From assembly GCA_026004595.1 (NCBI GenBank), contig BPJL01000010.1:1-38495 (forward strand): a stretch of DNA of 38,495 bases. The letters run 5' to 3'. Shown piece after piece: positions 1 to 17,807 of this stretch (the stretch's first letter is position 1; each line of letters begins with the position of its first letter). The stretch is from Patescibacteria group bacterium. GTDB lineage: Bacteria > Patescibacteriota > WWE3 > UBA101185 > UBA10185. The notes under the pieces are model-generated. The model was not told the origin of the DNA. It was given only the letters and a program-made list of their open reading frames with translations, and searched no databases. A program made the translations under genes and the position numbers.

Positions 1-125
1 GGTACTTAAAAGATTCAAGACACCCTCTTCCTTCTTATAGAATCAGTAAAAAAACAATCCTCATAAATGAAGAAGAATTGATGCAATGGATAGAAGAAAA
101 AGATAAGATAAATAAACATGAATAA
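1..125 (+). CDS. Excisionase/HTH_17-like DNA-binding protein, 5'-partial
   Basis: Own translation from base 3: ...YLKDSRHPLPSYRISKKTILINEEELMQWIEEKDKINKHE*; matches the Xis-type wing plus C-terminal helix pattern. Confidence 0.6.
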   Translation, partial: YLKDSRHPLPSYRISKKTILINEEELMQWIEEKDKINKHE

Positions 126-500
126 ACCTAATGATTTTGAAAGATTGCTTCTTAGCGAAAAAGAAATTGATTTTGATGCCCCAATAGCCAATATAAATAA
201 AGAAAATCTTACTAATATCTCTAAAAAGAAGAAGAATATAATTCCAATGTCCTTATATAAAAAAAATAATATCTTATTAGAACAAATAAAAACAAACGAG
301 GGAAAACTTGGCTTGACAAATTAAGATTAAAAGCAAAAAGATTTGAGAACAAGTTAGATAGAAAAAAAATGGCAGAGAAACTGTTAAATGATATAAAAAA
401 TCCTTCTTTTGTCGAAGTGTACACAAAAATGGATGCCTTAAATGAAGAAATTAGGAAATTAGAGAAACAATACAATCAACCACAAAAGTATGAAATATGA
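118..500 (+). CDS. Hypothetical protein (ORF 118-324 probably continues to 500 via a frameshift near 305)
   Basis: Adding one A in GGAAAACT gives ...EGKTWLDKLRLKAKRFENK...QKYEI*, whose stop overlaps the next ATG (ATGA at 497). Confidence 0.5.
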
Positions 501-727
501 GTTATATCTACATAAACAAGAAAGGCGAAATTAAGCTTCGCAGGGGAACTAAACTTTGGAAACAAACCTTAAAAAAGAACTGGATTAAGATTCTGCATCG
601 GCGACTTGAAACTATGCCTAAAGAATTTAAGCACGATTATACTTGCCCAGAAAAAAGTAAAGAAAAAGAGATTTGGCTTAACCTAAATTTACCTATTGAC
701 AAAAATAAAAATGGTTGTAATATATAA
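497..727 (+). CDS. Hypothetical protein
   Basis: 76-aa ORF coupled by an ATGA overlap. Confidence 0.55.
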   Translation: MSYIYINKKGEIKLRRGTKLWKQTLKKNWIKILHRRLETMPKEFKHDYTCPEKSKEKEIWLNLNLPIDKNKNGCNI

Positions 728-729
728 TT

Positions 730-1050
730 ATGGATATTAATAATATTGAAAAAGAACTTCAAAATATCTCTGACCGCATAGTAGAATTTCTAATAGAAGG
801 GCTTAAGAATGAAAAATTGAGAGTAGAAGTTGATTATTATGTAGCAAAAGTTGTATTGGGTAATTTAGTTTTTAATTTTTGGGTTGCTAATGGTATTACT
901 TCTCTTGAATGCTATGAAAGTGAAAAAAATTCTGTTGATTTATTCCTTTCTGATTCTCAAAAATTAAAATTATGGGAATCATTAATTCCTTATATTGATA
1001 AACAAAGAAATAACAAATATATTTTTGAAAGCAAAAACTATGAAAAATAA
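730..1050 (+). CDS. Hypothetical protein
   Basis: 106-aa ORF abutting its neighbours. Confidence 0.65.
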   Translation: MDINNIEKELQNISDRIVEFLIEGLKNEKLRVEVDYYVAKVVLGNLVFNFWVANGITSLECYESEKNSVDLFLSDSQKLKLWESLIPYIDKQRNNKYIFESKNYEK

Positions 1051-1459
1051 TTTATTATCTTGGTCATTCTACTCTTTGTGGAATGAAGGAATACTTGAAA
1101 CAAGAAAAGAAAGAAAAAACGAACCCAGACATCATATTTGGGCTTCTGAATTGGGCAAGAGTTTCATTGATGTCTTCCTTACATTAAAAGGTGAAGAACC
1201 TTCCAATGATTTTACTGAAACTGCATTAAGGAAATTTGAGGCGGGTAATATCTGGGAGAAAATTCTTGAGGTTGTTCTTGTAAAATCAGGTGTACTGATT
1301 CAAAGCCAAGAATATGTAACTTACGAGATTGACGGTTGTTTACCAGTTACGGGTAGGCTTGATTTTCTAGGCGGGGGTAAAATTAACAAAGAAAAAGCAA
1401 TGAAGAAATTAAAAGATTTTACTTGGCTTCCTGAAAATATCTTGTCTGTAATGCCCTAG
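1040..1459 (+). pseudogene. PD-(D/E)XK (Cas4/RecB-like) phage exonuclease, C-terminally truncated
   Basis: HIWASELG, FEAGNIWE and VTGRLDF motifs present; no ExK motif before the ORF runs into the convergent methyltransferase near 1445. Confidence 0.6.
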
Positions 1460-2220
1460 CGTTTTTAGTAATTTTTGTTTCCTTTGTTGATAAATTAACG
1501 GCATATAACCCTGTTTTTCCCCCTAGTCCTCCTGCGTTTTTAGCAAGTGTTGACGATATTCCTTTGCTATCATATATCCTTTGGCCTTGACTAAACTCTC
1601 TACTCATGTGTTTTTCTCCTTTAAGCCATTTTTTTCTTTGGCCAACGATTCCCGCAAAGTAGGTAAGAGTACCCGAACTGATTTGTCTGATAGGAAATAC
1701 TTGTCCTCTACTTTTTCCTCCAAAATGTCCAACAATGAACACTCTTTCCCTGTTTTGGGGAACTCCAAAGTGCTTGCTATTAAGAACCTGCCATTCAACT
1801 CTATACCCCAAGTCGGAGAGAACCCCAAGTATTGTCTGGAGAGTTTTTCCCTTGTCATGACTAAGCAAACCTTTGACATTTTCAAGTAATAAATATCGGG
1901 GTCTTTTGTGCTTTGCAATCCTAGCGATTTCAAAAAAGAGAGTCTCTCTGGTGTCCCTCAAATCTAAGTCTCTTTCCAGCGACACTAAACGCTTGACAAG
2001 GAAATCCAGCACAGAGTAAATCATGGTCTGGGATTTCATCAGGATTAACTGTTCTGATGTCTCTCGTGTCGATCTCCCCCCAATGCTTTCGGTAGATTGC
2101 TGAGGCGTATTTATCCCACTTGTTTGAATAGATGCATTTATATTCTTTTGATGCCTTTTCAAGTCCATACCTAAACCCTCCTATTCCAGCAAATAGGTCT
2201 ATGAATCTTATTGTTTTCAT
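1419..2220 (-). CDS. dcm: DNA (cytosine-5)-methyltransferase, main chain; frameshift near 1956, C-terminus truncated
   Basis: Motif I DLFAGIGG and IV AGFPCQAFS in ORF 1930-2220; VI LLENVKGL and VIII PQNRERVF in ORF 1419-2168; motif X absent. Confidence 0.9.
1604..1933 (-). CDS. Overprinted alternative-frame polypeptide, M.EcoHK31I beta-subunit-like
   Basis: 109-aa ORF nested in the MTase in another frame, with EFPKTGKECSLLDILEEKVEDKYFLS. Confidence 0.6.
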   Translation of the reverse strand: MKSLGLQSTKDPDIYYLKMSKVCLVMTREKLSRQYLGFSPTWGIELNGRFLIASTLEFPKTGKECSLLDILEEKVEDKYFLSDKSVRVLLPTLRESLAKEKNGLKEKNT

Positions 2221-2372
2221 TTTTCATTTTTTCTCTTTTTCAAAGAATTTTTTTTAATCTTTGTTGTTGCTCTTGGACAGCAGCATTAAAGCCCCACCTC
2301 AGCCACCATAGCGTTGAATAATGTTTTCTTTTCAACACTTCTCGCCTCCGCTGTGGTTTTGGCTATCCCGCT

Positions 2373-2636
2373 TTAAGACAAAATCTCATTTTTCCTCTTT
2401 TTTTGGAGATGATAATCCTTTCGAATAAAGGCCGGTATGTCGAGATAATCTTCTTCTTTGACTAACCAAGCTATGGTTTTGAATTTTATTTTTTTTTCCA
2501 TTTCTTGTTTTTTTTCATAATTTCTATTTCTCTTTTTTCAGCTGGTAGCCAACCTTTTTTTTACCCATTTAAACAGTCTATAATAGTTTTGGCCGTATTT
2601 TTTTGCTAATTCTGATATTCTCATTATTCTACTCAT
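2373..2636 (-). CDS. MerR/excisionase-type winged-HTH protein with an FtsZ-tail-like peptide (interrupted at poly-A runs)
   Basis: Own translation MSRIMRISELAKKYGQNYYRLFKWVKK(G)WLPAEKRE...AWLVKEEDYLDIPAFIRK; continuous if one A is removed from each of three A8/A9 runs; 2501-2373 is an open 42-aa ORF as sequenced. Confidence 0.6.
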
Positions 2637-2686
2637 ATAATACGAGTCAGCCTATCCCCTGCATTATCAGCTGACTCGTCTTATAT
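2635..2686. other. Long stem-loop in the leader of the HTH gene
   Basis: ATATAA-t-ACGAGTCAGC / GCTGACTCGT-c-TTATAT inverted repeat with an 18-nt loop. Confidence 0.7.
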
Positions 2687-2702
2687 AAATAGACATAGGT
2701 AT

Positions 2703-2731
2703 ATGATATTGTTGTTTTATTTTTTTGTCAA
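2703..2731 (-). promoter_or_regulatory. Sigma70-type promoter
   Basis: TTGACA-17-TATCAT on the minus strand. Confidence 0.7.
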
Positions 2732-2916
2732 GGTGTTTTTTTTCTAATTTCTGACAAAAAAAACAAAGTGGCCGGCCAAAAAACTTGGTACTGTATATTA
2801 GTTGTTTTTTTGGTCATTGTCTTGAAGCATAGAGAACAAGTCTCGTTGCTCCATCCGCTAAATTTTGTTTGTTTTGTTACCGCCCCTTTGGGGGGGCGGT
2901 AACTGAAATTAGCCAT
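2728..2916 (-). CDS. Small hypothetical protein with CxxC
   Basis: ATG 2916 overlaps the upstream stop and follows GGAGG; CSLC motif. Confidence 0.4.
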   Translation of the reverse strand: MANFSYRPPKGAVTKQTKFSGWSNETCSLCFKTMTKKTTNIQYQVFWPATLFFLSEIRKKTP

Positions 2917-3444
2917 TCTTTCTTTCCTCCTTTTCTTCAATTGTATCGGCTGAAACCTCTTCAGCGGATACCTCCCCGCCTCCAACCAGATTAGAAACTG
3001 CCCGATTGAAGGCTCTGGTTTCAGCTGTTGCTCTAATGTTGTGAATAGAATTGGGATTTGCCGGTCTTCCGAACTTATCTACATACTCGCCGTTTTTCTT
3101 GAATGCTTTCTCAAAAGCATCACAAGATCCAACACCGATAGCACTTCTACCATTAGGGGCTATAGCTCGGCAAGTAAAATGCCAAACAAAGGTCTTCCCT
3201 ATCTTTTCGCATCTTTCTTCCACCACCTCGACTGAGAGATTGAAAAATGTTGCTATTTTCCGCCAGTAACTTTTTTTCAAAAATTCTTTCCCTTCTATTT
3301 TATGTACGTCCTGGGGTTCAATTATTGCTTTTTTTAAGTTTTTGGTAGTCTTGCCATGCTTTTATAGCTTCATCGGGTGAAACTGCCGGCAAGACAATGT
3401 TTGTTGTTTTTGTTTCAACTATTTTTTGTTTTTTTTTCCGCCAT
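2909..3444 (-). CDS. Putative single-strand annealing/recombination protein (Rad52/Sak/ERF-like), frameshifted in the N-terminal part
   Basis: Strong RBS AAAGGAGGTGA before ATG 3444; RAIAPNGRSAIGVGSC and ATAETRAFNRAVSNLVG...VSAEE motifs. Confidence 0.55.
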
Positions 3445-3462
3445 GTTTTTCACCTCCTTTCT

Positions 3463-4005
3463 TTATATATTCATACATTTTCCCGCTGTCCATCTTTTAA
3501 AAGTTTTATTGTCGTTTAGATACATCCGGTATGCATAATCTATGTTGGTTTGCCAATTGAAGGCTTCATCGTCTGTTAGCGGGTGGTATTTGTTATTGAT
3601 TTGAAATATGCCCCTGTCTCTGCTTCCGTCTTTGTTGACATTGACTGCGTAGGGGTCAAGATTGGGATTTTCACCTCCACATTGACCATCACCTCGAAGC
3701 AGAAGCATTGCTTTTTCATAATCATCTTTGAATTTTATTTGGATATAATCTTCTATTTCTTCTTTTTGTGTTTTCTGACGTTCTGTATTGGATTCTAACG
3801 GGTCTTGTTGTTTTTGATTGACCATCCCATTATCTTTTGGTTTTTTCGCGGTTTCTGATTGATTTGGTGAGGTTTCAACCTCACTATAATTTGCATATAT
3901 TTCTTCTGGGTGTTTCATCCTTTGAATATCCCACCCCCAAAAGGCTACTGTGATGAATATAGATATGATTATCGGTAGTTCTTTTTGTAGTTGTTGGTTA
4001 ATCAT
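3463..4005 (-). CDS. Membrane-anchored lytic transglycosylase (lysozyme-like/SLT)
   Basis: N-terminal hydrophobic helix; GEN...AVNVNKDGSRDRGIFQIN...NIDYAYRMY...W lysozyme-fold motifs. Confidence 0.8.
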   Translation of the reverse strand: MINQQLQKELPIIISIFITVAFWGWDIQRMKHPEEIYANYSEVETSPNQSETAKKPKDNGMVNQKQQDPLESNTERQKTQKEEIEDYIQIKFKDDYEKAMLLLRGDGQCGGENPNLDPYAVNVNKDGSRDRGIFQINNKYHPLTDDEAFNWQTNIDYAYRMYLNDNKTFKRWTAGKCMNI

Positions 4006-4012
4006 TAACTAT

Positions 4013-4090
4013 ATAATAATACATATTGTGATTTTGTCAAGTGGTAAAATTAGTGGTTGACAAATTATTAAGTGTATTGTATATATAATA
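4013..4090. promoter_or_regulatory. Divergent back-to-back sigma70 promoters
   Basis: TTGACA on - at 4040-4035 (16 bp to TATTAT) and TTGACA on + at 4057-4062 (17 bp to TATATA), between divergent operons. Confidence 0.6.
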
Positions 4091-4092
4091 CA

Positions 4093-4263
4093 ATGATTAC
4101 AAAAAGTAAAAAAATAAAAACGAGATTCAAAAGACTTTCAGTGATACTCTCAATTAGATTCACTCCACAAATTTATGAAACATTACAAAAAAAAGCAATT
4201 GAGCAACAGAGACCAATCTCCGAGATCGTAAGAGAAGCTGTAGAAAAATATATTCAAGTATGA
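4093..4263 (+). CDS. Ribbon-helix-helix (CopG/Arc-like) regulator
   Basis: LSIRFTPQIYETLQKKAIEQQRPISEIVREAVEKY RHH pattern. Confidence 0.8.
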   Translation: MITKSKKIKTRFKRLSVILSIRFTPQIYETLQKKAIEQQRPISEIVREAVEKYIQV

Positions 4264-4979
4264 AAAAGCAAAAAAAACAAACAACAGGATGGTGTTTAAT
4301 CCCGCCTTATATATTGGCAAGAGAAGACCTAACTATGAGTGAAAAGGTGGTTTATGGGCGCATTTTGGGCTTGGTTAACAAAAAGGGATACTGCTATGCA
4401 ACAAATAAATGGTTAGGTAAGCAAGTTGGTTTAGCCTCTGGGACTATAGCTAATATAGTATCCAAACTAAAGGATAAAAAGCTGGTTTATGTAGAAGTTA
4501 TCAGGGACCAAAACAATAAAGTAACAGAAAGACGCATTTTTGTACCTAGTTTCATTCCTGAGTGGGGAGGTATTCACTCAGGAGTGAATAGGGGTATTCA
4601 CTCAGAAGTGAAAGAGAGTAATAGAGATATAGAGGGTAGAAAAGAGTATATATATTATCAGCAGCAAGCTGCTGACGAAGATAAAAATTCTTTTAATAAT
4701 GTAAAAGGATTTTCTACCTTACGAGAATCTCTTTCTTCCATTGATCTCTCCAAAAAGACCTCTCATGGCGGAGCACACTACGAGTGGCAAGACCACGCAA
4801 TAAGAGCAGCTAAATTTCTTGGCTTTAAACCAACAAAAAGTTGGTTCAAACTTTTCCGTGAAGCATATAAAAAGGGACAAAAAGGACTCATTTTGTCAAC
4901 CTTTGCGACGGTTGCAGATGCTGCTAATGCAAATGATCCAGAGAGGTATTTTTATAAGGTTTTTAACTCAAAATCATGA
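4260..4979 (+). CDS. Phage replication initiator (N-terminal HTH, lambda O-like organisation)
   Basis: IPPYILAREDLTMSEKVVYGRI...GYCYATNKWLG HTH; internal iteron repeats. Confidence 0.8.
   Translation: MKKQKKQTTGWCLIPPYILAREDLTMSEKVVYGRILGLVNKKGYCYATNKWLGKQVGLASGTIANIVSKLKDKKLVYVEVIRDQNNKVTERRIFVPSFIPEWGGIHSGVNRGIHSEVKESNRDIEGRKEYIYYQQQAADEDKNSFNNVKGFSTLRESLSSIDLSKKTSHGGAHYEWQDHAIRAAKFLGFKPTKSWFKLFREAYKKGQKGLILSTFATVADAANANDPERYFYKVFNSKS
4551..4660. repeat. Iteron-like repeats, probable replication origin
   Basis: GGTATTCACTCAG(G/A)AGTGAA at 4569-4588 and 4593-4612, a degenerate copy at 4551-4564, then a purine/AT-rich tract. Confidence 0.7.
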
Positions 4980-5188
4980 CCAAAATAGAAGAAATAAAAC
5001 AAAAAATGAATAAACTAGTAAAAAAATGGCAAGGAAAGCCAGAAGCACCATTCATGTCCAAGGAATACATCGAAAGAAGAATGGACAGGATTTTATACCG
5101 AAAACTACTTGCGAAGCTAAATCAGTTAGAAAAACAAACAGAAATTATTGAAGAAGCCAAAAAGATTTTTGAGATAGGGGAGAAATGA
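4976..5188 (+). CDS. Hypothetical protein
   Basis: 70-aa ORF, ATGA coupling at both ends. Confidence 0.65.
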   Translation: MTKIEEIKQKMNKLVKKWQGKPEAPFMSKEYIERRMDRILYRKLLAKLNQLEKQTEIIEEAKKIFEIGEK

Positions 5189-5409
5189 AAATTTTTAACC
5201 GATTCAAAAAAAGAAAGAGACTATATACCGTTTTGCTCACTGAAGACCAGCTGAAATTTTTAATGAAATATTGTCCATCAGGAGGTTGGTTTGGGGAGTA
5301 TTGTAAAAACAGCGAACTTTTCAAGGATAGAGTCTGTAAACAAAATGGTGCTAAATATAAAGCGGGAGAGGTTTGCGTATGTTTTCAGAGACAAGAAAAC
5401 AACCAATAA
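5185..5409 (+). CDS. Hypothetical Cys-rich protein
   Basis: 74-aa ORF with several Cys, ATGA coupled. Confidence 0.55.
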   Translation: MKIFNRFKKRKRLYTVLLTEDQLKFLMKYCPSGGWFGEYCKNSELFKDRVCKQNGAKYKAGEVCVCFQRQENNQ

Positions 5410-5499
5410 ATATATGAAAAACTTTTTGGACAAAACATCAACAAAAATGAAAACAATAGTTATAAAAAACGAAATGGCAAATTTGATAAAACAAAACAT

Positions 5500-5577
5500 G
5501 CAAGTCCGATGATGTTTGCTTGGTTTGTTTGGGAAAAAGGGTTTAGGGGCGAGCCTGTTATCAGATGGTTAGATTAG
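5500..5577 (+). pseudogene. Orphan C-terminal fragment resembling phage DNA methyltransferase-like proteins
   Basis: Reads SPMMFAWFVWEKGFRGEPVIRWLD* with no recognisable N-terminal part. Confidence 0.45.
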
Positions 5578-5682
5578 AACATATTTTTTACCAAAAAAGA
5601 GGGTGAAATTATGTCAGATTTAATAGACAAAGAAATCTTGGAAGATATAGTTGGTTATACATAAAGAACTAAAGGAGGAAAA

Positions 5683-5922
5683 ATGAAATATAGCACAACT
5701 GATGGCAGAGAGTGGTTTAAATCAGACATGTGTTTTTGTTGTCGAGTGGATACCGCCGGGAATCACGAATTGAATTGTCCGAATAATTTTAGTAGGGAGA
5801 AAAATGAAAAGAAGGGGGGTGAAATTATGTCAGAAGGAGGAAAAATGAGCAAGAACAAAGCGGAGTTTAATTTTACCGTTTTTGTTTATGTAAATACAGC
5901 TCATATTCTTTATAAAACCTAA
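5683..5922 (+). CDS. Hypothetical protein (CxCC..H...C)
   Basis: RBS AAGGAGG; putative Zn-binding N-terminal half. Confidence 0.45.
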   Translation: MKYSTTDGREWFKSDMCFCCRVDTAGNHELNCPNNFSREKNEKKGGEIMSEGGKMSKNKAEFNFTVFVYVNTAHILYKT

Positions 5923-6379
5923 TCAGCCCTTTTATGTTTCTGTTTTTAACATCTTCTCTGATTTTTTTCAACTCTTCAGCCGTCCATTCCCTAAATTGAT
6001 TTTTAGCAAACAAGAGGTAGTCATATCTTTCAGGGTATTTAGCTTTGAACCACTCCATCGCTTCAAGTGGAGAATCGTGCCAAAACCAACGGTGGCAACG
6101 GGAATCCATCGGCAAAACATTTAAGAAGTCAAATCTCAAGTGGTCGCAACTCCCACGAGAGAGGACATGGGAACAGTCCATCTTTTCAAAATACTTACCG
6201 CAATAAGCACATGGTTGTCCTTCGGTTATCATTCGATTGAATTCAATTTGAATTTGTTTTTTGAGAATTTTGATGTCATTTTCAAAGTAAAGGGTTTTGT
6301 GTTCCTTTGAGCAGAAGTGTTTTTTACCCTTTTTGTAGGGACATTTTGAACGCTTGAGGCAGTAGGCACACTTTTTCAT
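5873..6379 (-). CDS. NinG/Rap-like HNH endonuclease with N-terminal Zn finger
   Basis: CAYC...FCS..H finger; PCAYCG...MDCSHVLSRG...LRFD..N....CH NinG pattern. Confidence 0.8.
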   Translation of the reverse strand: MKKCAYCLKRSKCPYKKGKKHFCSKEHKTLYFENDIKILKKQIQIEFNRMITEGQPCAYCGKYFEKMDCSHVLSRGSCDHLRFDFLNVLPMDSRCHRWFWHDSPLEAMEWFKAKYPERYDYLLFAKNQFREWTAEELKKIREDVKNRNIKGLIRFYKEYELYLHKQKR

Positions 6380-6666
6380 AGGCTTTCTCGTAATTTACTC
6401 CAGCTTATGTTTTTCCCAAACGGGAGCAAGTCCAAATCTGGATATTTCTTATAAAATAAAATTTCATCCTACAATTCGTCAACTTCAACATCTAGAAATT
6501 TAGCAATCATTTAATTCTTGTAAAGGTTTATCCATTTTTCTTAGTCTGCGACGCAATAAACACTTCAATGTAGCATTAGAGTCGCATAGATTGTGCCTTT
6601 TTCATGGTCTTTTTTCTTTCTTGCGACGCTGCTACGTTATTTATGGCTTTAGAATAAAAATACCAC

Positions 6667-6695
6667 TTGACAAAATGACTAATATATATTATGAT
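6667..6695 (+). promoter_or_regulatory. Sigma70 promoter, likely leaderless mRNA
   Basis: TTGACA-17-TATGAT, then 6 nt to ATG 6702. Confidence 0.7.
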
Positions 6696-6701
6696 TGAAT
6701 C

Positions 6702-7361
6702 ATGAAAACAAAATTGAAAAAAGCAGCAGAAAAATTGAATGCTGCGCTGAGTAAAAAAAGAAAAATAATTATCATAAACAAATGGGATCAATTATGGTCT
6801 GATCTAAGCTGCGGATCTTTGCCCGATCTTAAACCGCCCAGTTGGGAGGAGTTAGAAAGTGAAATATGGCATGAGCTAAAATCTGAATTTTTTTCAGAAA
6901 TAGAAAAAGAAATAGGACAAACAGCGTATATACAACTTGAAAGAGAATTTTTTTCACAATTATGTTGTGAAAAAGAATTGTGGTCAGAATTGAAAAAAGA
7001 ATTAGATTATGCATTAGAACCCGAAGATCCAGACGATATAGGGTCAGAAACCTGGAAATATTATGACAATGATTGGGTTCTGTTTGCGCTACAACGATAC
7101 CCCCACTTATCAGTATTCCAAAAAAACAAAGAAAAAGTTGAGGCTATCAGAGATATAGTTGAGGCTGGTAATGCTTATATTTGGCTCAGTTCGGAGAGAA
7201 TGTATCTTTTGCCGATGCCGGAAGAAATTCACAGAAATGACCAAAAAAAGCTCCATAATGAACAAGGTTATGCCCTGAGTTGGGCGGGTCAAAAAACTTA
7301 TTGGTTGAATGGAGTGAAATTAGAAAAAACCATCTGGGAAAAAATGAGGAGAAAAAATTAG
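6702..7361 (+). CDS. Hypothetical protein, DUF6745-like C-terminal domain
   Basis: KLHNEQGYALSWAGQKTYWLNGV motif preceded by L(W/F)S(E/Q)L repeats. Confidence 0.6.
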   Translation: MKTKLKKAAEKLNAALSKKRKIIIINKWDQLWSDLSCGSLPDLKPPSWEELESEIWHELKSEFFSEIEKEIGQTAYIQLEREFFSQLCCEKELWSELKKELDYALEPEDPDDIGSETWKYYDNDWVLFALQRYPHLSVFQKNKEKVEAIRDIVEAGNAYIWLSSERMYLLPMPEEIHRNDQKKLHNEQGYALSWAGQKTYWLNGVKLEKTIWEKMRRKN

Positions 7362-7445
7362 AAGCAATTAATAGGATGAGATTATGTATTGTCTCACTTC
7401 TTTGACCATCTTATTTGTGCGGCTTTTTTAGCCATTTTTTTGAGT

Positions 7446-7901
7446 TTATCTTTGTTTTTTTTTGGCATTGACTAAACCCGCTTTGCGGGCTTTTTCACGG
7501 CGGGATACTTCTAGCCAAGTATTCCATATCAAATCAAGAAGAATTAACATTATAGGTTGCCAAAATAGCCAACTAGTCAATGCACCAGTTGATAAAATGT
7601 AGCTTTTTTCTTTTGCTAATTCTTTAGTTGTCATTTTTTGAAATCTTTTTTTTAAAATCGGTAGGACTTTTTTTTTGATTTTTACAATGAACTTTTTTTT
7701 ACTTTTTTTGATTATTTCTTCTTTAATCTCTAACTTTTCGAGAGTGCTTAATTTATTCCACTCATGGTGTGGGATATCAGGAGGAATATAGTCGTCATCG
7801 CTGATTTTGTTTTCTTCCCTAATATATTTATAAAATTGTTCTTTGAATTCGGGGAATTTTTTGAGAAATTCTTTATTTTTTTGTATGTGTTGTATGATCA
7901 T
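7446..7901 (-). CDS. Hypothetical Lys-rich protein
   Basis: Likely start ATG 7901 (MIIQHIQK); the upstream extension in the track overlaps the 8027 gene. Confidence 0.55.
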   Translation of the reverse strand: MIIQHIQKNKEFLKKFPEFKEQFYKYIREENKISDDDYIPPDIPHHEWNKLSTLEKLEIKEEIIKKSKKKFIVKIKKKVLPILKKRFQKMTTKELAKEKSYILSTGALTSWLFWQPIMLILLDLIWNTWLEVSRREKARKAGLVNAKKKQR

Positions 7902-8026
7902 GGTTTTATAGTCTTGGGGCGAGCCGTATGCACCGGTAATTACTACTCCATACCAGCTCGAACAGAAACTGGGGCAACTTTTGATTTTCCTTGCCAATAA
8001 AAAGAAGAAAGGGGGTGGGTTTGTCG

Positions 8027-8326
8027 ATGCAACCAACCTATAAGGAGGAGTGGATTGTGAAAGTTGGCAAAGAGGCTTTTGTTCTTGACGAGAGGCAGAT
8101 TGTTGTCTTGAAGGAAGCAATGAAGACAAACAACAGGTGGGTAAGTTTTGAAAAATTTATTATTTCTATACCACATATTGAGTGTATTTATCTAAACAGA
8201 AGAGAAGTTGCAAACCAACTGCCTGAAGGCAAGAAAGAAGATGAGAACTTTAAGCCCATTCCATCCGAGAAGTGGAAGAAAATGAAGGAGGAAATTTACC
8301 AAAAAGCGGGAAGGAGTGTTGCTTAA
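8027..8326 (+). CDS. Hypothetical protein
   Basis: GGGGGTG RBS-like sequence, ATG 8027, 99 aa. Confidence 0.6.
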   Translation: MQPTYKEEWIVKVGKEAFVLDERQIVVLKEAMKTNNRWVSFEKFIISIPHIECIYLNRREVANQLPEGKKEDENFKPIPSEKWKKMKEEIYQKAGRSVA

Positions 8327-8545
8327 TCGTGGGGCTGTGCTTGAAAAAATAGAGGAATCAAAATGAAAAAACAAAATAAAGAGATATGAAAACTATGACA
8401 AAAAGCGATAGAACAAAGAGAACTTAAAATAGTTAAAGAAAAATTGGGTCTCATTAGGGCCTTTTTAGACTATTCTTAAGGTTTAAGACTATGAAAGGAG
8501 ATGTAGAACAGTTTAAACTTTTGCGTCCTCAATTAAGTAATTTTA

Positions 8546-8800
8546 ATGAAAACTAAATATCCATTAGTCTATCTTGAGTGGGAAGATGCCAATTCTATGT
8601 CTTCGTGGGAGACTAACGAGCAGATAGATAAATGGCTAAAAACGAATGAAGATTATGGGCAAGTAGAGCAAGTCGGTTGGCTCATTAGGGAAACTAAAAC
8701 TTGTATAATTCTTGCCTCTCGGCACGCACCAGAAAATGATTATCAAGATGAGCATTGGGGAAATTTGCAGAAAATTCCTAAAACTTGGATTATCAAATAG
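8546..8800 (+). CDS. Conserved phage hypothetical protein
   Basis: VYLEWEDA...VGWLIRE...IILAS...IPK pattern common near terminase genes. Confidence 0.65.
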   Translation: MKTKYPLVYLEWEDANSMSSWETNEQIDKWLKTNEDYGQVEQVGWLIRETKTCIILASRHAPENDYQDEHWGNLQKIPKTWIIK

Positions 8801-8833
8801 GGAAGTAGACTTATCTGCTATAATAGGGTTGAT

Positions 8834-9187
8834 ATGTCAGCTTCACTTGACACTTTTGACAAGAAAAAAAAGTTTATTGAGTTTTACTCCCGCCCCGAAG
8901 TGCAAGGAAATATCTCAATGACTTGTGATGCAGTTGGAATAACCCGCCAGACTTACTACAATTGGTTGGAAAAAGATAAGAAGTTTAGAGAAGAGATGTA
9001 TGAGGCAAAGATGAAGATGTGCGATGAGATGGAGCAGATACTTATCAGTAGAGCGGTTGAGAAAAGTGATACAGCTTTAATTTTTTGGTTGAAATATAAT
9101 CACCCACAGTATAAGGAAAATCCTCAGGTTCAAATCAATCAACAATTTATCTTTAACAAGCTAAAAGAGAAATATGGCGAACTTTAG
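8834..9187 (+). CDS. terS: Terminase small subunit (HTH)
   Basis: GNISMTCDAVGITRQTYYNWLEKD HTH and DTALIFWLK; directly upstream of the large terminase; extended -10 TGcTATAAT at 8816-8824. Confidence 0.8.
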   Translation: MSASLDTFDKKKKFIEFYSRPEVQGNISMTCDAVGITRQTYYNWLEKDKKFREEMYEAKMKMCDEMEQILISRAVEKSDTALIFWLKYNHPQYKENPQVQINQQFIFNKLKEKYGEL

Positions 9188-10008
9188 AGACAAAGCCCAA
9201 ACATATGTTAATTTTATCAAAGATAATTTTATGCTTGTTGCCAAAGATGGGACGGTTAAAAGATTTTATGATGACCAAAACCATTGGAGAATTCAAGAAG
9301 ATTTTATCCTAAACAAAGCGACAGGACGGGATGTAATTTTAAAATCAAGACAATTAGGTTTTTCATCCATCATTCTTGCCATTTTCACAACAGACTTTTT
9401 ACTCAAAGATAACTCCTATTCAATGGTAATAGCTGATAAATCAGATAATGCTGAGGATTTACTTTCAAGAGTAAAGTTTTATATCAAGTCATTTGAGGAA
9501 ATAAACCAAGTAAAACTAAACTTAAAATACAATTCAAAATATGAACTTTATAATGAACAGTTAAACTCTACTTATAAGATAGGAACCGCAGAGAACAAAG
9601 AGGTTGGAAGAAGTAAAAGTTTAACGGGACTTCATTTATCGGAATTTGCTTTCTATCAAGACCCTGAAGCAATCTTACGCTCTGCTTTACAGGCAGTGGT
9701 TCCGGACGGAAAAATATTTATTGAAACAACAGCCAACGGCTTCAACTTTTTCAAGACTTTTTGGGAAGAGTGTAAAAGAGGGGAGCGACCATTTAATCCT
9801 TTATTTTATGGTGCAAGTCAATTTTATTCATCCGAGTTTTTTGGAAAACAAAAAGAAGGAACTAAAAAATTACTACCCTCAAGAATATCCGGAAACGGAT
9901 ATTGAAGCATTTATTTCAAGTGGACAAAACTATTTTGACAAGCAGGCACTAAAATGGTATTTGGATAACATAAAAGAACCCATTAAAAATGATTTAATCT
10001 ATGTTTAA
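9174..10008 (+). CDS. terL: Terminase large subunit, ATPase domain (frameshift at T6, 9837-9842)
   Basis: Walker A ILKSRQLGFS, Walker B GLHLSEFAF, motif III IETTANG, QEYP in the shifted frame. Confidence 0.9.
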
Positions 10009-10645
10009 ACAATACCGACAAATAGAGCGAGGTGAGTTTATTGTTGTTGGTGTTGATACCGCATCAGGCGGTGGTGATTATACTGCCGCCCAGTTTTTAT
10101 CAAAAACAAAAGTAGATGTTCCTTTAGTTTATCATTCGCCGATAACTACTACCGAATTTACCAATCTTTTAGTGCCTGTTCTTGAAAAGATTTCAGATAC
10201 AACAGGAATAAAGCCAGTTGTTGCTTATGAGCGAAATAATGGCGGAGCATTTGAGATGGATAGGCTGGCGGCAATGAATAGGCTTAATAAATACGACTTA
10301 TTTAAGATGCCATCCTTTGGAAGAGAAAATCCGCCAGAGGCGGTTCAATACGGCTGGATAACTTCTACGGCAACCCGCCCCAAAATGCTTCAAGACCTGA
10401 AACAGGCAATAGATAACAAAATTCCAATTCTGTACGATAGTGCAACCATAAACGAGATGTATTCTTTTGTGGTTGTTCAAACATCATCAAGTTGGAAAGC
10501 ACAAGCCGATAAGGGGGCAAAAGATGATTTGGTTATGGCACTGGCGATTGCTTGGCAGTTGAATAACAACCTCGAAGAAAGAAGTTTGTCTCAATCTTAC
10601 CACCCTATCTATGCGGGTGAAAAGAAAAACTGGAGTTTAGTATGA
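10001..10645 (+). CDS. terL: Terminase large subunit, RNase H-like nuclease domain
   Basis: VVGVDTASGGGDYT, ERNNGG, KDDLVMALAIA. Confidence 0.9.
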   Translation: MFKQYRQIERGEFIVVGVDTASGGGDYTAAQFLSKTKVDVPLVYHSPITTTEFTNLLVPVLEKISDTTGIKPVVAYERNNGGAFEMDRLAAMNRLNKYDLFKMPSFGRENPPEAVQYGWITSTATRPKMLQDLKQAIDNKIPILYDSATINEMYSFVVVQTSSSWKAQADKGAKDDLVMALAIAWQLNNNLEERSLSQSYHPIYAGEKKNWSLV

Positions 10646-10977
10646 GAAATTCTTATGTTACGCCCTCTATAACCAAAATGCTTTACGGCTGGAGTAAGTG
10701 GGGGCGGGGCAACTTTGGCATTTTCAGGGAAATAACTGAAGAGTGGAATTGCCAGATTTGTGGGGAAAGACAAATAATAGGATTGCCACAATATTTTTTT
10801 CCAATGGACGACTCAAGAAGAGATTTTATTCGGGTGTGCCCATCTTGTTGGCACGATTTACGAGAGGCGGATATTCACACTTATGAGGAATTAGATAAAA
10901 AATTAGGCATTGAAAAATTTAAAGAGCAAATCAGACTCAAAATAATAGAGGTTAAGATGAAATTGAAAACCTCTTGA
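10642..10977 (+). CDS. Zn-ribbon hypothetical protein
   Basis: CQICG...CPSC; ATGA coupled. Confidence 0.65.
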   Translation: MRNSYVTPSITKMLYGWSKWGRGNFGIFREITEEWNCQICGERQIIGLPQYFFPMDDSRRDFIRVCPSCWHDLREADIHTYEELDKKLGIEKFKEQIRLKIIEVKMKLKTS

Positions 10978-10993
10978 AGGATTACTTTATAAT
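10963..10993 (+). promoter_or_regulatory. Late-class promoter 1 (portal)
   Basis: TTGAAAACCTCT, 19-bp spacer, TATAAT, 6 nt to ATG. Confidence 0.8.
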
Positions 10994-10999
10994 CTAGCT

Positions 11000-13026
11000 A
11001 TGAGTGATTTAATTGAGGAGCTAAATTCCCATTATCAAGACTGGAGTGAAGATATAACCCAACGCATCGAACGCAAACTTGGCTGGAAAGATGTTACCGA
11101 TACTTACTACGGTGTTCTTCCCGATGATTGGCCGTATGAGAGTCGTGTGGTTGACCCCAGAGTTAGAACCATCTTAATTGAAAAGAATTCAAGACTTACA
11201 GGGGGAAGAATAAGTGGCAGGGTTGTTCCAGTTGAGAATGCCGATGTTATCAAGGCTCGTATTCAACAAGCCTTACTTGAATATCAATGGAGAATGGCTG
11301 ATGAGGGAGGCTCAATGCAAACCAAACTTTCAATCTCTGATATGGATGCAAGACTTTACGGTTCAAAGTTTGTCCTGATTGAATGGAGGGTAAGGAAAGA
11401 TAAAGACGGTAAAGTTGTTTATGAAGGTAATGAATTCAAGCCTCTAGATATCAGAGACTGCGGGATTGACCCAACCGCCTCACACATAAGAGACGCTAAA
11501 TGGTTTCAACACAGGCAATGGGTTTATTTAGAAGACCTAAAGAAGGCAGTTGACGCTAAAGGCAAACCGCTTTTCAAGAATTTGGGCGAGATTGAAAAAA
11601 GACTTAAAGATAAAATCTCCGACACAAGGATTGAATACAACCCCAGAATACTTGAGATACAGGGGGCGAGAGGACAGAATGGGTAAGGATATTGCCTTCC
11701 CGATGATTAAGATTGTTACCGAGTATAGAAAAGATAGATGGATTACCTTTTCTCCGACTTATAAAGTAATTCTAAGAGACATAGCAAATCCCTATAATCA
11801 CGGCAAAATTCCAATTGCGCAACTTCGCTATCACGCCTTACAAGACGACCCGTTGGGCGAAAGTGAGGTAGAGCCAGTAATTATGCTTTGGAGAGCAATT
11901 CAAGCTGTCTTGTGTGGTTATATGGACGAAGTAGTCTTGAAGATGAATTCACCTCTTATTGCTGTTACTAATACCTATCGTCCTGAAACAATCAATTTTG
12001 CCCCTCGCGCTATCTGGGAGGTGGACAGACCTGATGCTATTACTCCTTTCAGGTTTGACGCAAACTCAATCCAATACTTTCAATCCACCTACCTTGCCCT
12101 AGTTTCAGCCCTTAATACGGCAATGGGAGCGATGAGTCAAGGAGTCTCAAACATTGACCCGACACAATATAAAAAGACTGCTACCGAGATTAGGACTTCT
12201 ATGAGGCAACAGACCCGCCGTTGACCAGAAGAACCTCACCGACTTAGGGGAGTTTTTACGAGATGTTATTTCAATGTGGATAGCTAATAATCAACAATTC
12301 CTCTTTTCAGACGAAAGCAAACATTACTTGATAGTTAAAGTAATAGGCAAGGATAATTGGGAATTCTTCAAGAAGGCGGGATTTGCGGACACCGATGTCC
12401 CAATTGAGGCACAGAAAATCATTGCTGATATTCTTATACAAAATCCCGACACAACAGAGGCTCAATTACAAGAGATGTTAGAAGCTGCCAAAATGCCAAA
12501 GAATGCCGTTGTTCTTAATCCTCGCGAGAAAAATCCACTTAAGTATAAGTTTGCACCAAAGCTCTCGTTGAAAGAGATGGGGGACGAGGGAGATTTATAC
12601 ATCACCAAAGAGGACATACAAGGACAATACGATTTTATTCCTGATATTAGGCTTATGACTATTACCGAAAGCGAAGAAAGACAAGCGGGAAGGCAAGCAG
12701 CTCTTCAAACTTTGACAACCAACCAATTAGTGCTACAATTATTACAAGATGAAGGTTATAAACCGAAAGTTAAAGAGCTTTTGGAAGCGACTCTTGAAGA
12801 CACAGGTCTTAAAGACCCTGAAAGGTTTTTTGAAAAGATAGAGAAAATAAATGAAAACATCCAAACGCAAAGAAATGCTTCAGGAACGCCTGAGGTTTTG
12901 GGAGGCACTATCCCGAATATCCAAAATGGAGGAGTGGCAACGCCACCTGAAGCCATACCTCCTCTCGAAAACCAACAACCAATGGCTACAGCCGGACAAA
13001 TTCAACAACCTCAAGGAATTTCATAA
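11000..13026 (+). CDS. Portal protein (P22/SU10-like); frameshifts near 11664 and 12221
   Basis: Three consecutive ORFs join by deleting single bases; NPYNHGKIP, PLGESEVEP and KTATE portal motifs; lies after terminase. Confidence 0.85.
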
Positions 13027-15924: not shown

Positions 15925-16056
15925 ATGTCCAAAATCTTATTTGTGTTAAATATTGTGCTTTTAATAGTCGTTTCTTTGTTGCTTGTTAAGGCTAGATGTC
16001 TAGAGAAGGAAGTAAAATCGGCTCAATGTATTCCCTGTCATATATGGTTAAGATAG
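15925..16056 (+). CDS. 43-aa single-pass membrane protein with CxxCH
   Basis: RBS AGGAGGTG; MSKILFVLNIVLLIVVSLLLVKARCLEKEVKSAQCIPCHIWLR*. Confidence 0.6.
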   Translation: MSKILFVLNIVLLIVVSLLLVKARCLEKEVKSAQCIPCHIWLR

Positions 16057-17807
16057 CTTTATCTATTATCACTAAAGGTGATGAGGAGTTAGACAACCTT
16101 AAAAAGTGTGTCGCCTCATTTTTGCCTGCTGTTGACGGGGTGTTTATTACCGCCAATGGTAAGAAGACAAAAGAGACCGAGAAGTGGTGTAAAGAAAATG
16201 GCTTTAATTACTCTTATCTTGCTTGGAACGATGATTTTTCAGCCCAAAGAAATTTTAACTTCTCACAGATTAAGGGATTTGACTGGATTTTGTGGGCGGA
16301 TAGTGACGATATTTTAGTCGGTGCAGACAAATTAAGAGATGTTGCTGATATTTCTTACAAGAACGGTTTTGATTGTGTTTTCTTTACCTATTATTACGGT
16401 TGTCTTTTTGATGGCGAACCCAGTTTTGAGAATATAAAACAAGTTGACTTAATCCAAAAGCGGGAAAGACTTTTAAAACCAGGTGTTTTTGTTTGGAAGG
16501 GAAGACTGCACGAAACACCAGTTCCTGTAAATAATTATCAGCCAAAATACACTTATGTCCCTTATTCTGAAGAATTCCCCATTGTCTGGGTGCACACCGA
16601 AGCTGATAGAAATCCCAATGCCCCTAAAAACATAGAACGAATGGAGAGAAATAAAAGAATTCTTGAGCTTCAGTTGAAAGAGGAAAGAGAAAAAGGAACA
16701 GCAGACCCACGAACCTTACTTTATCTGATGAAAATCTATGTAGAGCTTCCCGAACAGGAATTGTGGCAAAAATGTATTGAGATGGGGTATGAGTATTTAT
16801 CAAAATCGGGTTGGGACGAAGAGCGAGCCATCGCTTATCAGTTAATAAGCAAGTGTTATAGCCAGTTGGGAGACAACAGGAAAGCCGAAGAGGCAATAAG
16901 AAACGCCATCAAAGAATATCCTTACGAACCCTTGCTTTATCTTTACTTGGCAAAATACCTCTTTAATCAAAACAAATACAACGAGATGGAACACTGGCTT
17001 AAACTGGCGGTCTCAATGGAAGAGAAGGACACAACCCAAATGAATAATGAGATGGAAAAGAAAATCCTAGCCGCAGAACTCACTTTTAAGCTGGAATTTT
17101 ATGTTAAGCGAGATGTCAGAAAAGCATATCGGGCAATAAAATACCTCTACGATATAGCTCAAACCGAAGAGGCGTTGGTGCTCTTAAAAGAGGTTGAAAG
17201 ATTAAAAGAATTAGACGAGGCTTGTGAGGACACACACAAACTAATTAAATACTTTGAAAAAGAGGATAAAGAAGAAAGGGTTATCCCCTTAATTCAGTCT
17301 TTGCCTCTTGAAATCTCCAATCTTGAGTTTGCCTATCACTACTTTAACAAATACAAAAAACCAAGAGTTTGGAAGAAAAATGAGATTTGCTACTATGCTT
17401 ATCTTGGTCCGCACTTTGAGAAGTGGTCTCCTTTATCATTAAAAACAGGAATTGGCGGCTCTGAAACTGCGGTTATCAGACTTTCTCAAGAATGGGCAAA
17501 GAAAGGTTATACAGTAGTCGTCTATGCCGATGTCTTAAAAGAGGGCATTTATGATAATGTTATCTGGCTTCCTGCTTACAAGTTTAATCCTCGTGATAGA
17601 TTTAATGTCTTTATTCAATGGCGGTCTTCTTCTTTGGCAGGAAAAATCAAAGCCAAGAAGTTTTTAGTTGACTTGCACGACTTATATTCTCCGCAGGCTA
17701 TTGACTGGAATAAAATAGACTTTGCTATGGTTAAAAGTAAGTATCAAAGAAACCTAGCAAAAGATATTCCTGATAGTAAATTTAGGATAATTTCAAATGG
17801 CATATGA
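16044..17807 (+). CDS. GT2 glycosyltransferase + TPR repeats + N-terminal half of a GT4 (GT-B) domain
   Basis: WNDDFSAQRNF, WILWADSDD, WKGRLHE; TPR helices; GIGGSETAVI...ISNGI. Confidence 0.85.
   Translation: MVKIALSIITKGDEELDNLKKCVASFLPAVDGVFITANGKKTKETEKWCKENGFNYSYLAWNDDFSAQRNFNFSQIKGFDWILWADSDDILVGADKLRDVADISYKNGFDCVFFTYYYGCLFDGEPSFENIKQVDLIQKRERLLKPGVFVWKGRLHETPVPVNNYQPKYTYVPYSEEFPIVWVHTEADRNPNAPKNIERMERNKRILELQLKEEREKGTADPRTLLYLMKIYVELPEQELWQKCIEMGYEYLSKSGWDEERAIAYQLISKCYSQLGDNRKAEEAIRNAIKEYPYEPLLYLYLAKYLFNQNKYNEMEHWLKLAVSMEEKDTTQMNNEMEKKILAAELTFKLEFYVKRDVRKAYRAIKYLYDIAQTEEALVLLKEVERLKELDEACEDTHKLIKYFEKEDKEERVIPLIQSLPLEISNLEFAYHYFNKYKKPRVWKKNEICYYAYLGPHFEKWSPLSLKTGIGGSETAVIRLSQEWAKKGYTVVVYADVLKEGIYDNVIWLPAYKFNPRDRFNVFIQWRSSSLAGKIKAKKFLVDLHDLYSPQAIDWNKIDFAMVKSKYQRNLAKDIPDSKFRIISNGI

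Follow-up and report, generated by a model that had tools for sequence, protein, structure and literature searches.

Does a small phage gene code for a DNA-binding protein that ends in a copy of the FtsZ C-terminal tail? The question is raised by the reverse strand of contig BPJL01000010.1 of a Patescibacteria group bacterium (WWE3; assembly GCA_026004595.1), between positions 2,373 and 2,636. This contig, called C10 below, was analysed over its entire length of 38,495 bases, and by the window we mean that whole stretch; the genome to which it belongs has 18 contigs and 1.04 Mb and is 93.8% complete. An earlier note, made from the letters alone, had drawn attention to the peptide KEEDYLDIPAFIRK, encoded at 2459-2418 (-) within a 42-amino-acid (aa) open reading frame (ORF, 2501-2373) and lying 14 residues from its C-terminus. 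The translation agrees, in that the peptide occupies residues 15-28 of the ORF and 14 residues follow it. The reading that we favour, with a probability of about 0.5 and on the strength of sequence comparison, is that the locus codes for a phage winged-helix protein whose end would have been shaped into an FtsZ-tail copy that docks on FtsA. We infer that the peptide would be exposed, would bind FtsA and would affect division.

Conservation of the FtsZ-tail-like motif

A HMMER scan of 1.84 billion representative sequences (E<=0.001) returned six proteins, namely the 42-aa piece of the window itself (P0001) and five intact homologues of 65-90 aa, and a profile search added three further intact homologues; these eight intact proteins form the alignment that we call A2. 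Another homologue (L005, 84 aa) was found in IMG/VR on a 29-kb viral contig, and one more (L006, 80 aa) among species-representative genomes, on a 3-kb contig of an Omnitrophota metagenome-assembled genome (MAG). With these two the intact set comes to 10 proteins of 65-102 aa, which derive from metagenomes, the IMG/VR phage contig and the Omnitrophota MAG contig, and two of the eight obtained by protein searches belong to an Endomicrobia MAG, in which they are annotated as no more than hypothetical proteins.

Lack of conservation of the motif had been named beforehand as one of the points on which the idea of an FtsZ-like tail could fall. We found the whole motif, [ED][EDQYS][DS][FWY][LF]x[IV]P[AT][FW][ILV]R, in all 10 intact homologues and in both copies of the gene that the genome carries, one on C10 and one on a second contig, C9, and within A2 its I, P and R never vary. 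In the 10 intact members and in the C10 and C9 copies the motif is followed by 6-22 mostly basic residues. The core of FtsZ peptides, which reads [DE]-[IV]-P-x-[FY]-[LIM]-[RK] with acidic residues before it and a short, often basic end after it, is likewise present in the window (DYLDIPAFIRK), in the C9 copy (DWLDVPTFLRKK) and in every one of the 10 intact homologues. When all six frames of the genome were scanned with the stricter pattern [LFWY][DES][IV]P[AT]F[LIV]R, three matches were obtained in 2,076,246 codon positions, as compared with 0.033 expected from composition, and these are the C-terminus of FtsZ, the C10 gene and its C9 paralogue. Since a lone match of 8 residues could arise by chance when very many stretches of DNA are scanned, the weight of the argument rests on the conservation of the motif in the family.

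The likeness to the FtsZ tail proposed in the earlier note was borne out by profile searches with A2, which does not contain the window sequence. Against all PDB sequences, the profile gave four matches at E<=10, of which three were FtsZ C-terminal tails (KEPDYLDIPAFLRKQ in 9isk and 8h1o, and DDTLDIPTFLRNRNKR in 2vam). Against 401 genomes of the host phylum, it gave matches in 58 genomes, and at 16 of the 29 loci fetched from these the match was the C-terminus of a 366-446-aa ORF containing GGGTG[ST]G, for example SEEDELDIPAFIRKKMK followed by the stop codon; the other 13 loci carried no FtsZ-tail-like motif. The sole near-full-length match in the host phylum (L064, from genome G064 and one of these 13 loci) proved to be an ordinary HTH_17-type ORF, HTH standing for helix-turn-helix, that ends in ...EFNKFLRKASTK and a stop codon, and a further match on contig C16 of the genome was another ordinary HTH_17-type ORF ending in ...ELDKFIQKQKV. 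Both lack an L-D-I-P-A insertion, and small HTH_17 proteins in general do not carry the motif, as the 13 loci also indicate. Judged from these sequences, the feature specific to the family is only the L-[DE]-I-P-[AT] insertion, which turns an HTH_17 ending into an FtsZ tail.

We also compared FtsZ tails from loci L044-L068 (the 16 host-phylum genomes) and L010-L039. Twelve of the 16 tails of the phylum, a profile-biased sample, end in [DE]-L-[DE]-[IV]-P-A-F-I-R-[KR]-K-x-K, with I and not L after the F, and tails of the host class read F/Y-D-I-P-[AT]-F-L-R. The window peptide is of the F-I type of the phylum, and the C9 copy is of the host-class type.

Reconstruction of the broken gene

On the (-) strand of the window the following pieces of the gene can be recognised.

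2556..2636 (-): N-terminal piece with the helix-turn-helix, (MSRI)MRISELAKKYGQNYYRLFKWVKK, which can be aligned with the N-terminus of every intact homologue
2555..2562 (-): A8 run at which the frame is lost, one A in excess relative to the homologues
2489..2554 (-): middle piece in the neighbouring frame (GWLPAEKREIEIMKK...), corresponding to the wing of the winged helix
2373..2501 (-): C-terminal piece, the 42-aa ORF MEKKIKFKTIAWLVKEEDYLDIPAFIRKDYHLQKKRKNEILS, comprising the last wing strand, the motif and a basic tail
2418..2459 (-): FtsZ-tail-like peptide KEEDYLDIPAFIRK, kept in the same columns in all homologues

The HTH-like ORF at 2636-2538 (-), which is translated as MSRIMRISELAKKYGQNYYRLFKWVKKRLATS up to its stop, shares one frame with the ORF at 2501-2373, and a single TGA at 2540-2538 divides the two. 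The middle of the gene is held by the neighbouring frame (GWLPAEKREIEI; the full stretch reads KKGWLPAEKREIEIMKKNKKWKKK and then a stop), in which KKGWLPAEKREIEI fits positions 21-50 of the family hidden Markov model (HMM) with 15.9 bits. Five poly-A runs are found here, an A7 at 2604-2598, an A8 at 2562-2555, an A6 at 2538-2533, an A8 at 2515-2508 and an A9 at 2497-2489, and we scored readings edited by one-base changes in these runs against the HMM of the 10 intact homologues. Of seven readings that were open and in frame, the best reached 94.9 bits and had one A fewer in the A8 at 2562-2555, the A8 at 2515-2508 and the A9 at 2497-2489, which is the repair foreseen in the earlier note, where three poly-A runs were each to lose one base. 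Readings with two indels scored 92.3 and 92.2 bits, and the four best of the seven (85.2-94.9 bits) all drop one A in the A8 at 2562-2555. Left unedited and with X for the TGA, the frame scored 69.4 bits, and the nominal frame spans HMM positions 3-81 at 69.3 bits.

Because the poly-A-edited readings score best against the family HMM, we read the pieces as one gene of ~82-84 codons, whose frame likely returns at the A8 at 2515-2508 and the A9 at 2497-2489. The alignment of the pieces to the intact homologues also sustains the earlier view that a single broken gene codes for a small HTH protein of the Xis/MerR type. Its start could be at 2636 or at 2624, the latter being more likely going by the homologues. 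In the favoured reading the locus is a single early gene of the phage contig, which was binned with a bacterium of small genome, and its frame is broken by one-base poly-A indels in a low-coverage assembly.

C10 as a whole is phage-like, coding for a small and a large terminase subunit, a portal, a major head protein, tail proteins and an endolysin-like peptidase, and in addition for a replication initiator, NinG, a Cas4-like exonuclease and a Dcm methylase. Several of these genes are split as well: the large terminase gene lies in three overlapping ORFs (9174-10645), the portal gene in two (11000-12224) and the Dcm methylase gene in two frames (1419-2220), the last break being at a GG with no long homopolymer there. 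The sole public run containing this DNA, probably the source sample, provided contigs at a word depth of ~2 that agree with the window at 1800-2496, 2556-2742 and 2806-3334 and do not cover 2497-2555. As genes as essential as those of the terminase and the portal are broken at such a depth, the frame breaks of C10 point to assembly indel errors more than to decay. A megablast search of positions 1-12000 of the window against phage records gave no match.

A second copy and the replication/recombination setting

The second copy of the gene lies on C9. This related phage contig, from the genome to which C10 belongs, has homologues of NinG and of the Cas4-like exonuclease, and the copy on it is frameshifted likewise (...RISELAKKYGVSYRTLYRF / HKYGMPSKK...REVLMVREEDWLDVPTFLRKKIRKK). 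The copy stands two genes after a clear Cas4-domain exonuclease, with ORFs of 122 aa and 98 aa intervening. On the viral contig from IMG/VR, the L005 gene follows a weakly Cas4-like gene and is part of a block with an O-like replication-initiation protein and a primase/helicase, and on C10 the gene has a 123-aa gene on one side and the Dcm gene on the other, with the replication initiator nearby. In C10, C9 and L005 the gene sits in a replication/recombination module, and no integrase adjoins it in the loci that were read.

As assembled, the C9 copy (C9:36150-37050, L070:6150-7050) continues in frame into a membrane-anchored lysozyme-like gene of the SLT_3 type. If one A8 run is off by one, an ATGA start/stop overlap appears after ...FLRKK, and this overlap would end the C9 protein a few residues past the motif. 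Homologues of this lysozyme-like gene lie at 4005-3463 (-) in the window and at L005:3811-4395.

Other searches added no members to the family. A word-index homology search with the 87-aa reading in which TGA is translated as W gave no candidate, a scan of metagenome contigs with A2 gave 31 pattern-matching stretches and no relative, and tblastn of the homologue P0002 against 50,697 phage records gave no match at E<=1. The C9 Cas4-like exonuclease, used in IMG/VR to look for sister phages, gave a single match of only 17 residues. PHROGs held no family for the window pieces (E<=0.001) or for L005 and L006 (E<=0.01), and the ESM Atlas gave only clusters without a name, apart from one in which 34% of the members carry HTH_17. 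In 133 other genomes of the host class, the sole match was to the N-terminal HTH only.

Predicted fold

The L005 protein and P0002 were modelled with AlphaFold2 (AF2), with mean predicted local distance difference test (pLDDT) scores of 79.0 and 75.6, respectively, and both models run from a strand through two helices and a long beta wing to a helix EEDWLE, an I-P break and a short helix (TFIRNKW or AFLR). Foldseek found nothing in the PDB at E<=0.001. The best structural match was the Pukovnik Xis 4j2n (Z 6.3, root-mean-square deviation 2.1 over 51 aligned residues, model 1..69 against 2..53 of a chain of 54), followed by a phage small-terminase HTH (7lxs, Z 5.9), BldC (Z 5.6), pSK1 Par (8csh, Z 5.0), RacA (5i41, Z 4.5), Tn916 Xis (Z 4.0) and TorI (Z 3.3), and MerR N-terminal domains were listed as well. 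This Xis/MerR-type list appears coherent, though its Z values are modest (4-6.3 for the best matches). In Pfam, the window pieces matched MerR_1 (PF13411) with 15.0-15.2 bits as against a cut-off of 21.6; among the homologues, HTH_17 (PF12728) was matched by P0009 with 24.4 bits and by P0002 with 14.7 bits, the cut-off being 27, and the other six of eight had no HTH match. A tubulin/FtsZ GTPase domain with GGGTG[ST]G is absent from the 65-102-aa homologues. The models are suggestive of a winged helix-turn-helix protein of the Xis/MerR type, and DNA binding would be expected from such a fold.

Host division proteins and a possible mechanism

In the host genome FtsA is encoded at C6:30775-32031 (418 aa), directly upstream of FtsZ (C6:32069-33265), the tail of which ends in ...GDYGTGFDIPTFLRQK and a stop codon. 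Searches of this genome revealed no SepF, MinC, ClpX zinc finger or ZipA, and since it is 93.8% complete their absence is not proven; FtsA is the only known FtsZ-tail-binding partner that was found. The suggestion in the earlier note that SepF might be the partner is therefore not upheld for this host, in which FtsA was found and SepF was not. The genomes of 30 relatives measure 0.6-1.4 Mb, and 29 of their 30 FtsZ proteins end in P[ATS]FLR. The host tail FDIPTFLRQK and the C9 copy LDVPTFLRKK are identical at 7 of 10 positions. The Omnitrophota MAG that carries L006 had no FtsZ_C match in its genome.

An excerpt of PMC4117426 has the E. coli FtsZ tail, DYLDIPAFLRKQAD, binding ZipA, FtsA, MinC, ZapD, ClpX and SlmA, and a 14-residue peptide of this tail being enough for binding. 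For B. subtilis, an excerpt of PMC6657595 gives the FtsZ tail as DIPTFLR plus NRNKRG.

According to the favoured reading, the intact protein of ~82-84 aa would consist of a winged HTH of the Xis/MerR type, then E-E-D-x-L-D-I-P-A-F-I-R-K and then a tail rich in lysine and arginine, and its peptide would occupy the FtsZ-tail site on host FtsA, in subdomain 2B. Two outcomes can be envisaged. The peptide may compete with FtsZ for the membrane anchor, so that division of the host would be delayed during infection; here Kil of phage lambda and DicB of a prophage would be parallels that act on division by other means. Alternatively, since the same small protein would also bind DNA, it may tether phage DNA to FtsA at the membrane or at the division site. 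That the family has a working FtsZ-tail copy by which phage DNA is hitched to FtsA for replication anchoring or segregation, or by which FtsZ is evicted from its only anchor, we regard as on balance unlikely.

Binding to FtsA would make the peptide a natural competitive inhibitor of the FtsZ-FtsA link, an antibiotic-target interface, and a first handle on the phage-host biology of ultra-small uncultivated bacteria in which FtsA is apparently the sole FtsZ anchor; it would also represent a short linear motif grown from the last helix of a DNA-binding fold. Should it not bind, the case would be a warning that a conserved likeness over 8-13 residues can arise inside a fold.

Alternative explanations

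A number of observations weigh against an FtsZ-tail copy that docks on FtsA. The gene is not open in the present assembly, the assignment of the phage to its host comes from binning alone, and the C10 copy agrees with the tail of the presumed host at only 5 of 10 positions. The family is rare, with no other member in the 133 other host-class genomes and none among the 29 loci fetched from 400 other host-phylum genomes. The matches to FtsZ tails in the PDB had E values of 1.6-1.7 and are not significant alone, and presentation at the end of a long disordered linker, as in FtsZ, was not seen. In all 12 rows of the family the motif stands 3-4 residues past the last wing strand, at a fixed spacing without indels. 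In both AF2 models EEDWLE is helical and the motif block has a pLDDT of 84-85, the basic tail reaching only 51-64. The alignments of the top structural matches (VIA-align), all of the Xis/MerR type, extend to model residue 69-75 and so take in the motif. Its first half therefore forms the final helix of the Xis fold, and the hydrophobic residues by which FtsZ binds its partners may be packed within that fold. The caveat in the earlier note that this stretch also fits an ordinary Xis helix was well placed, since EEDWLE is a confident helix in the models and Xis folds align through residue 69. Finally, an ending of the form aromatic-x-x-F-[LI]-[RQ]-K is common to ordinary HTH_17 proteins (for example ...EFNKFLRK...), so part of the likeness to FtsZ is inherited from the fold. 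The fold matches running through the motif, its confident prediction in two models, its constant spacing from the wing strand, the endings of canonical HTH_17 neighbours and the insignificant E values in the PDB all favour an ordinary Xis/MerR-type DNA-binding protein (a regulator, an excisionase-like protein or a recombination accessory factor) with a structural helix-kink-helix that resembles FtsZ by coincidence, and a 24-nt inverted repeat in the leader would suit such a protein if it regulates itself. We take this explanation as a tentative one, its odds clearly short of even. A coincidence is at variance with the FtsZ-tail match in the same phylum, which extends over 12-13 consecutive positions (EEDxLDIPAFIRK) and into the basic tail, and with the finding that FtsZ tails are the top non-self matches of the profile in two independent databases. 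Moreover, an invariant proline is unusual in a supposed packing helix, neither of the two ordinary small HTH ORFs that were read has the I-P-[AT] insertion, and the 13 fetched loci without an FtsZ match carry no such motif.

The motif could also be a functional docking site for a partner other than FtsA, serving as a degradation or recruitment tag or as a site for another phage protein, because conservation alone does not tell which partner is bound, and the E. coli FtsZ tail binds at least six different proteins (excerpt of PMC4117426). We consider this quite unlikely, as the searches of the 93.8%-complete genome found FtsA but not MinC, the ClpX zinc finger, ZipA or SepF, and no candidate partner was identified in the phage. 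Very unlikely, in our estimate, is a true pseudogene in the C10 phage, or a locus from which only the 42-aa ORF is made, with nothing functional in either case. A frame broken at least twice, a C9 copy that is broken too, the splitting of the large terminase, portal and Dcm methylase genes and a Dcm break that lies away from long homopolymers all count in favour of this; breaks in essential genes of a full-length phage contig at a word depth of ~2 speak for assembly error instead, the pieces reach 94.9 bits once three poly-A runs are shortened, and the ATG at 2501 is not preceded by an evident Shine-Dalgarno-like sequence. Last, both ORFs sharing a frame that is interrupted by just one TGA, and the unedited frame still scoring 69.4 bits against the family HMM, we considered a TGA at 2540-2538 that is read as an amino acid, by an alternative code or by read-through, to give an 87-aa protein without any frameshift. 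This is hardly credible and was rejected: TGA is an ordinary stop in this genome, closing 165 of the 604 long frames (>=200 aa) on the other contigs and 9 of the 24 on C10, long frames are intact under the standard code (code 11), the segment past the A8 run fits the homologues only in the other frame (15.9 bits), and the edited readings are 23-25 bits better.

Comparison with known systems

The family consensus E-E-D-F-L-x-I-P-A-F-I-R-K with its basic tail corresponds to FtsZ tail sequences, and the predicted I-P break followed by a short helix resembles the helix of the FtsZ tail in its complexes with ZipA and FtsA. In contrast to FtsZ, where the peptide belongs to a tubulin-like GTPase, the motif of the family is on an 80-aa DNA-binding protein, where it abuts the folded domain without a long disordered linker and is followed by 6-22 residues, compared with 2-4 in most FtsZ proteins of the host class (up to 6). 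With the winged helices of the Xis/MerR group (HTH_17, 4j2n, BldC, Tn916 Xis and TorI) the family agrees in size, in predicted fold, if at modest Z values, and in its occurrence in phages, and in phage lambda the C-terminal tail of Xis is a docking peptide for Int. It differs from this group in a much longer wing and in the conserved L-x-I-P-[AT] insertion, and it stays below the cut-off of HTH_17 in Pfam.

RacA of B. subtilis and pSK1 Par, whose MerR-like winged-helix DNA-binding domains were among the structural matches, offer another comparison, for in RacA the winged-helix domain is joined to a region that docks on the division and polarity protein DivIVA. Unlike the present family, RacA and pSK1 Par dock by long coiled coils or other domains and not by a copy of the FtsZ tail.

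Phages stop host division by small early proteins. Kil of lambda, DicB of Qin, Icd of P1 and YmfM of e14 are, as excerpts of the literature have them, small early phage proteins that stop FtsZ-ring function, and in this respect the protein proposed here would be like them. They have no sequence relation to it, and it matches no PHROGs or Pfam family, those of Kil, DicB, Icd and gp0.4 included; furthermore, its proposed target is the tail-binding site of FtsA and not FtsZ, and a DNA-binding domain is added. An excerpt of PMC3961180 places lambda kil together with the red recombination genes in one operon and describes DicB as acting by mimicry of the host division protein MinD. Full-text literature searches brought up the phage division inhibitors Kil, Icd, YmfM, CbtA and Gp53, and in none of their results is a phage protein said to copy the docking peptide of FtsZ.

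Upstream elements and further observations

Two elements were noted upstream of the coding region.

2703..2731 (-): promoter-like site TTGACA-17-TATCAT upstream of the gene, an 11/12 match to the consensus only
2628..2693 (-): 24-nt inverted repeat with arms at 2628-2651 and 2670-2693, 88% complementary, and an 18-nt spacer

The region contains four promoter-like sites, compared with a mean of 2.2 in shuffled sequences. The inverted repeat lies between the promoter-like site and the coding start and covers the ATG at 2636. As RNA it would fold with -31.8 kcal/mol (z -5.96), a value equalled by none of 200 shuffles, and its sequence makes it a possible operator for autoregulation or a leader hairpin over the first ATG.

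Elsewhere in the window, the head and tail genes of the phage have between them, at 15996-19360, two large genes of glycosyltransferase-like proteins, of 603 and 518 aa.

A search of IMG/VR with the strict DNA-level pattern [DE][LF][DE]IP[AT]F.[RS]K gave 27 loci and no member of the family. Four of these loci are FtsZ ends and the other 23 are tiny frames ending in ...DFDIPTFLSKT and a stop codon, which are not clear protein genes. The 23 tiny frames come from prophages of isolate genomes (L074-L099), lie at about 1501-1530 of each locus and measure 25-34 aa from stop to stop with no ATG visible. They end in ...GIFRDFDIPTFLSKT or ...SVLRDFDIPAFLSKAE before the stop codon, being FtsZ-tail-like with S in place of R, and may represent either a micro-peptide or conserved non-coding DNA.

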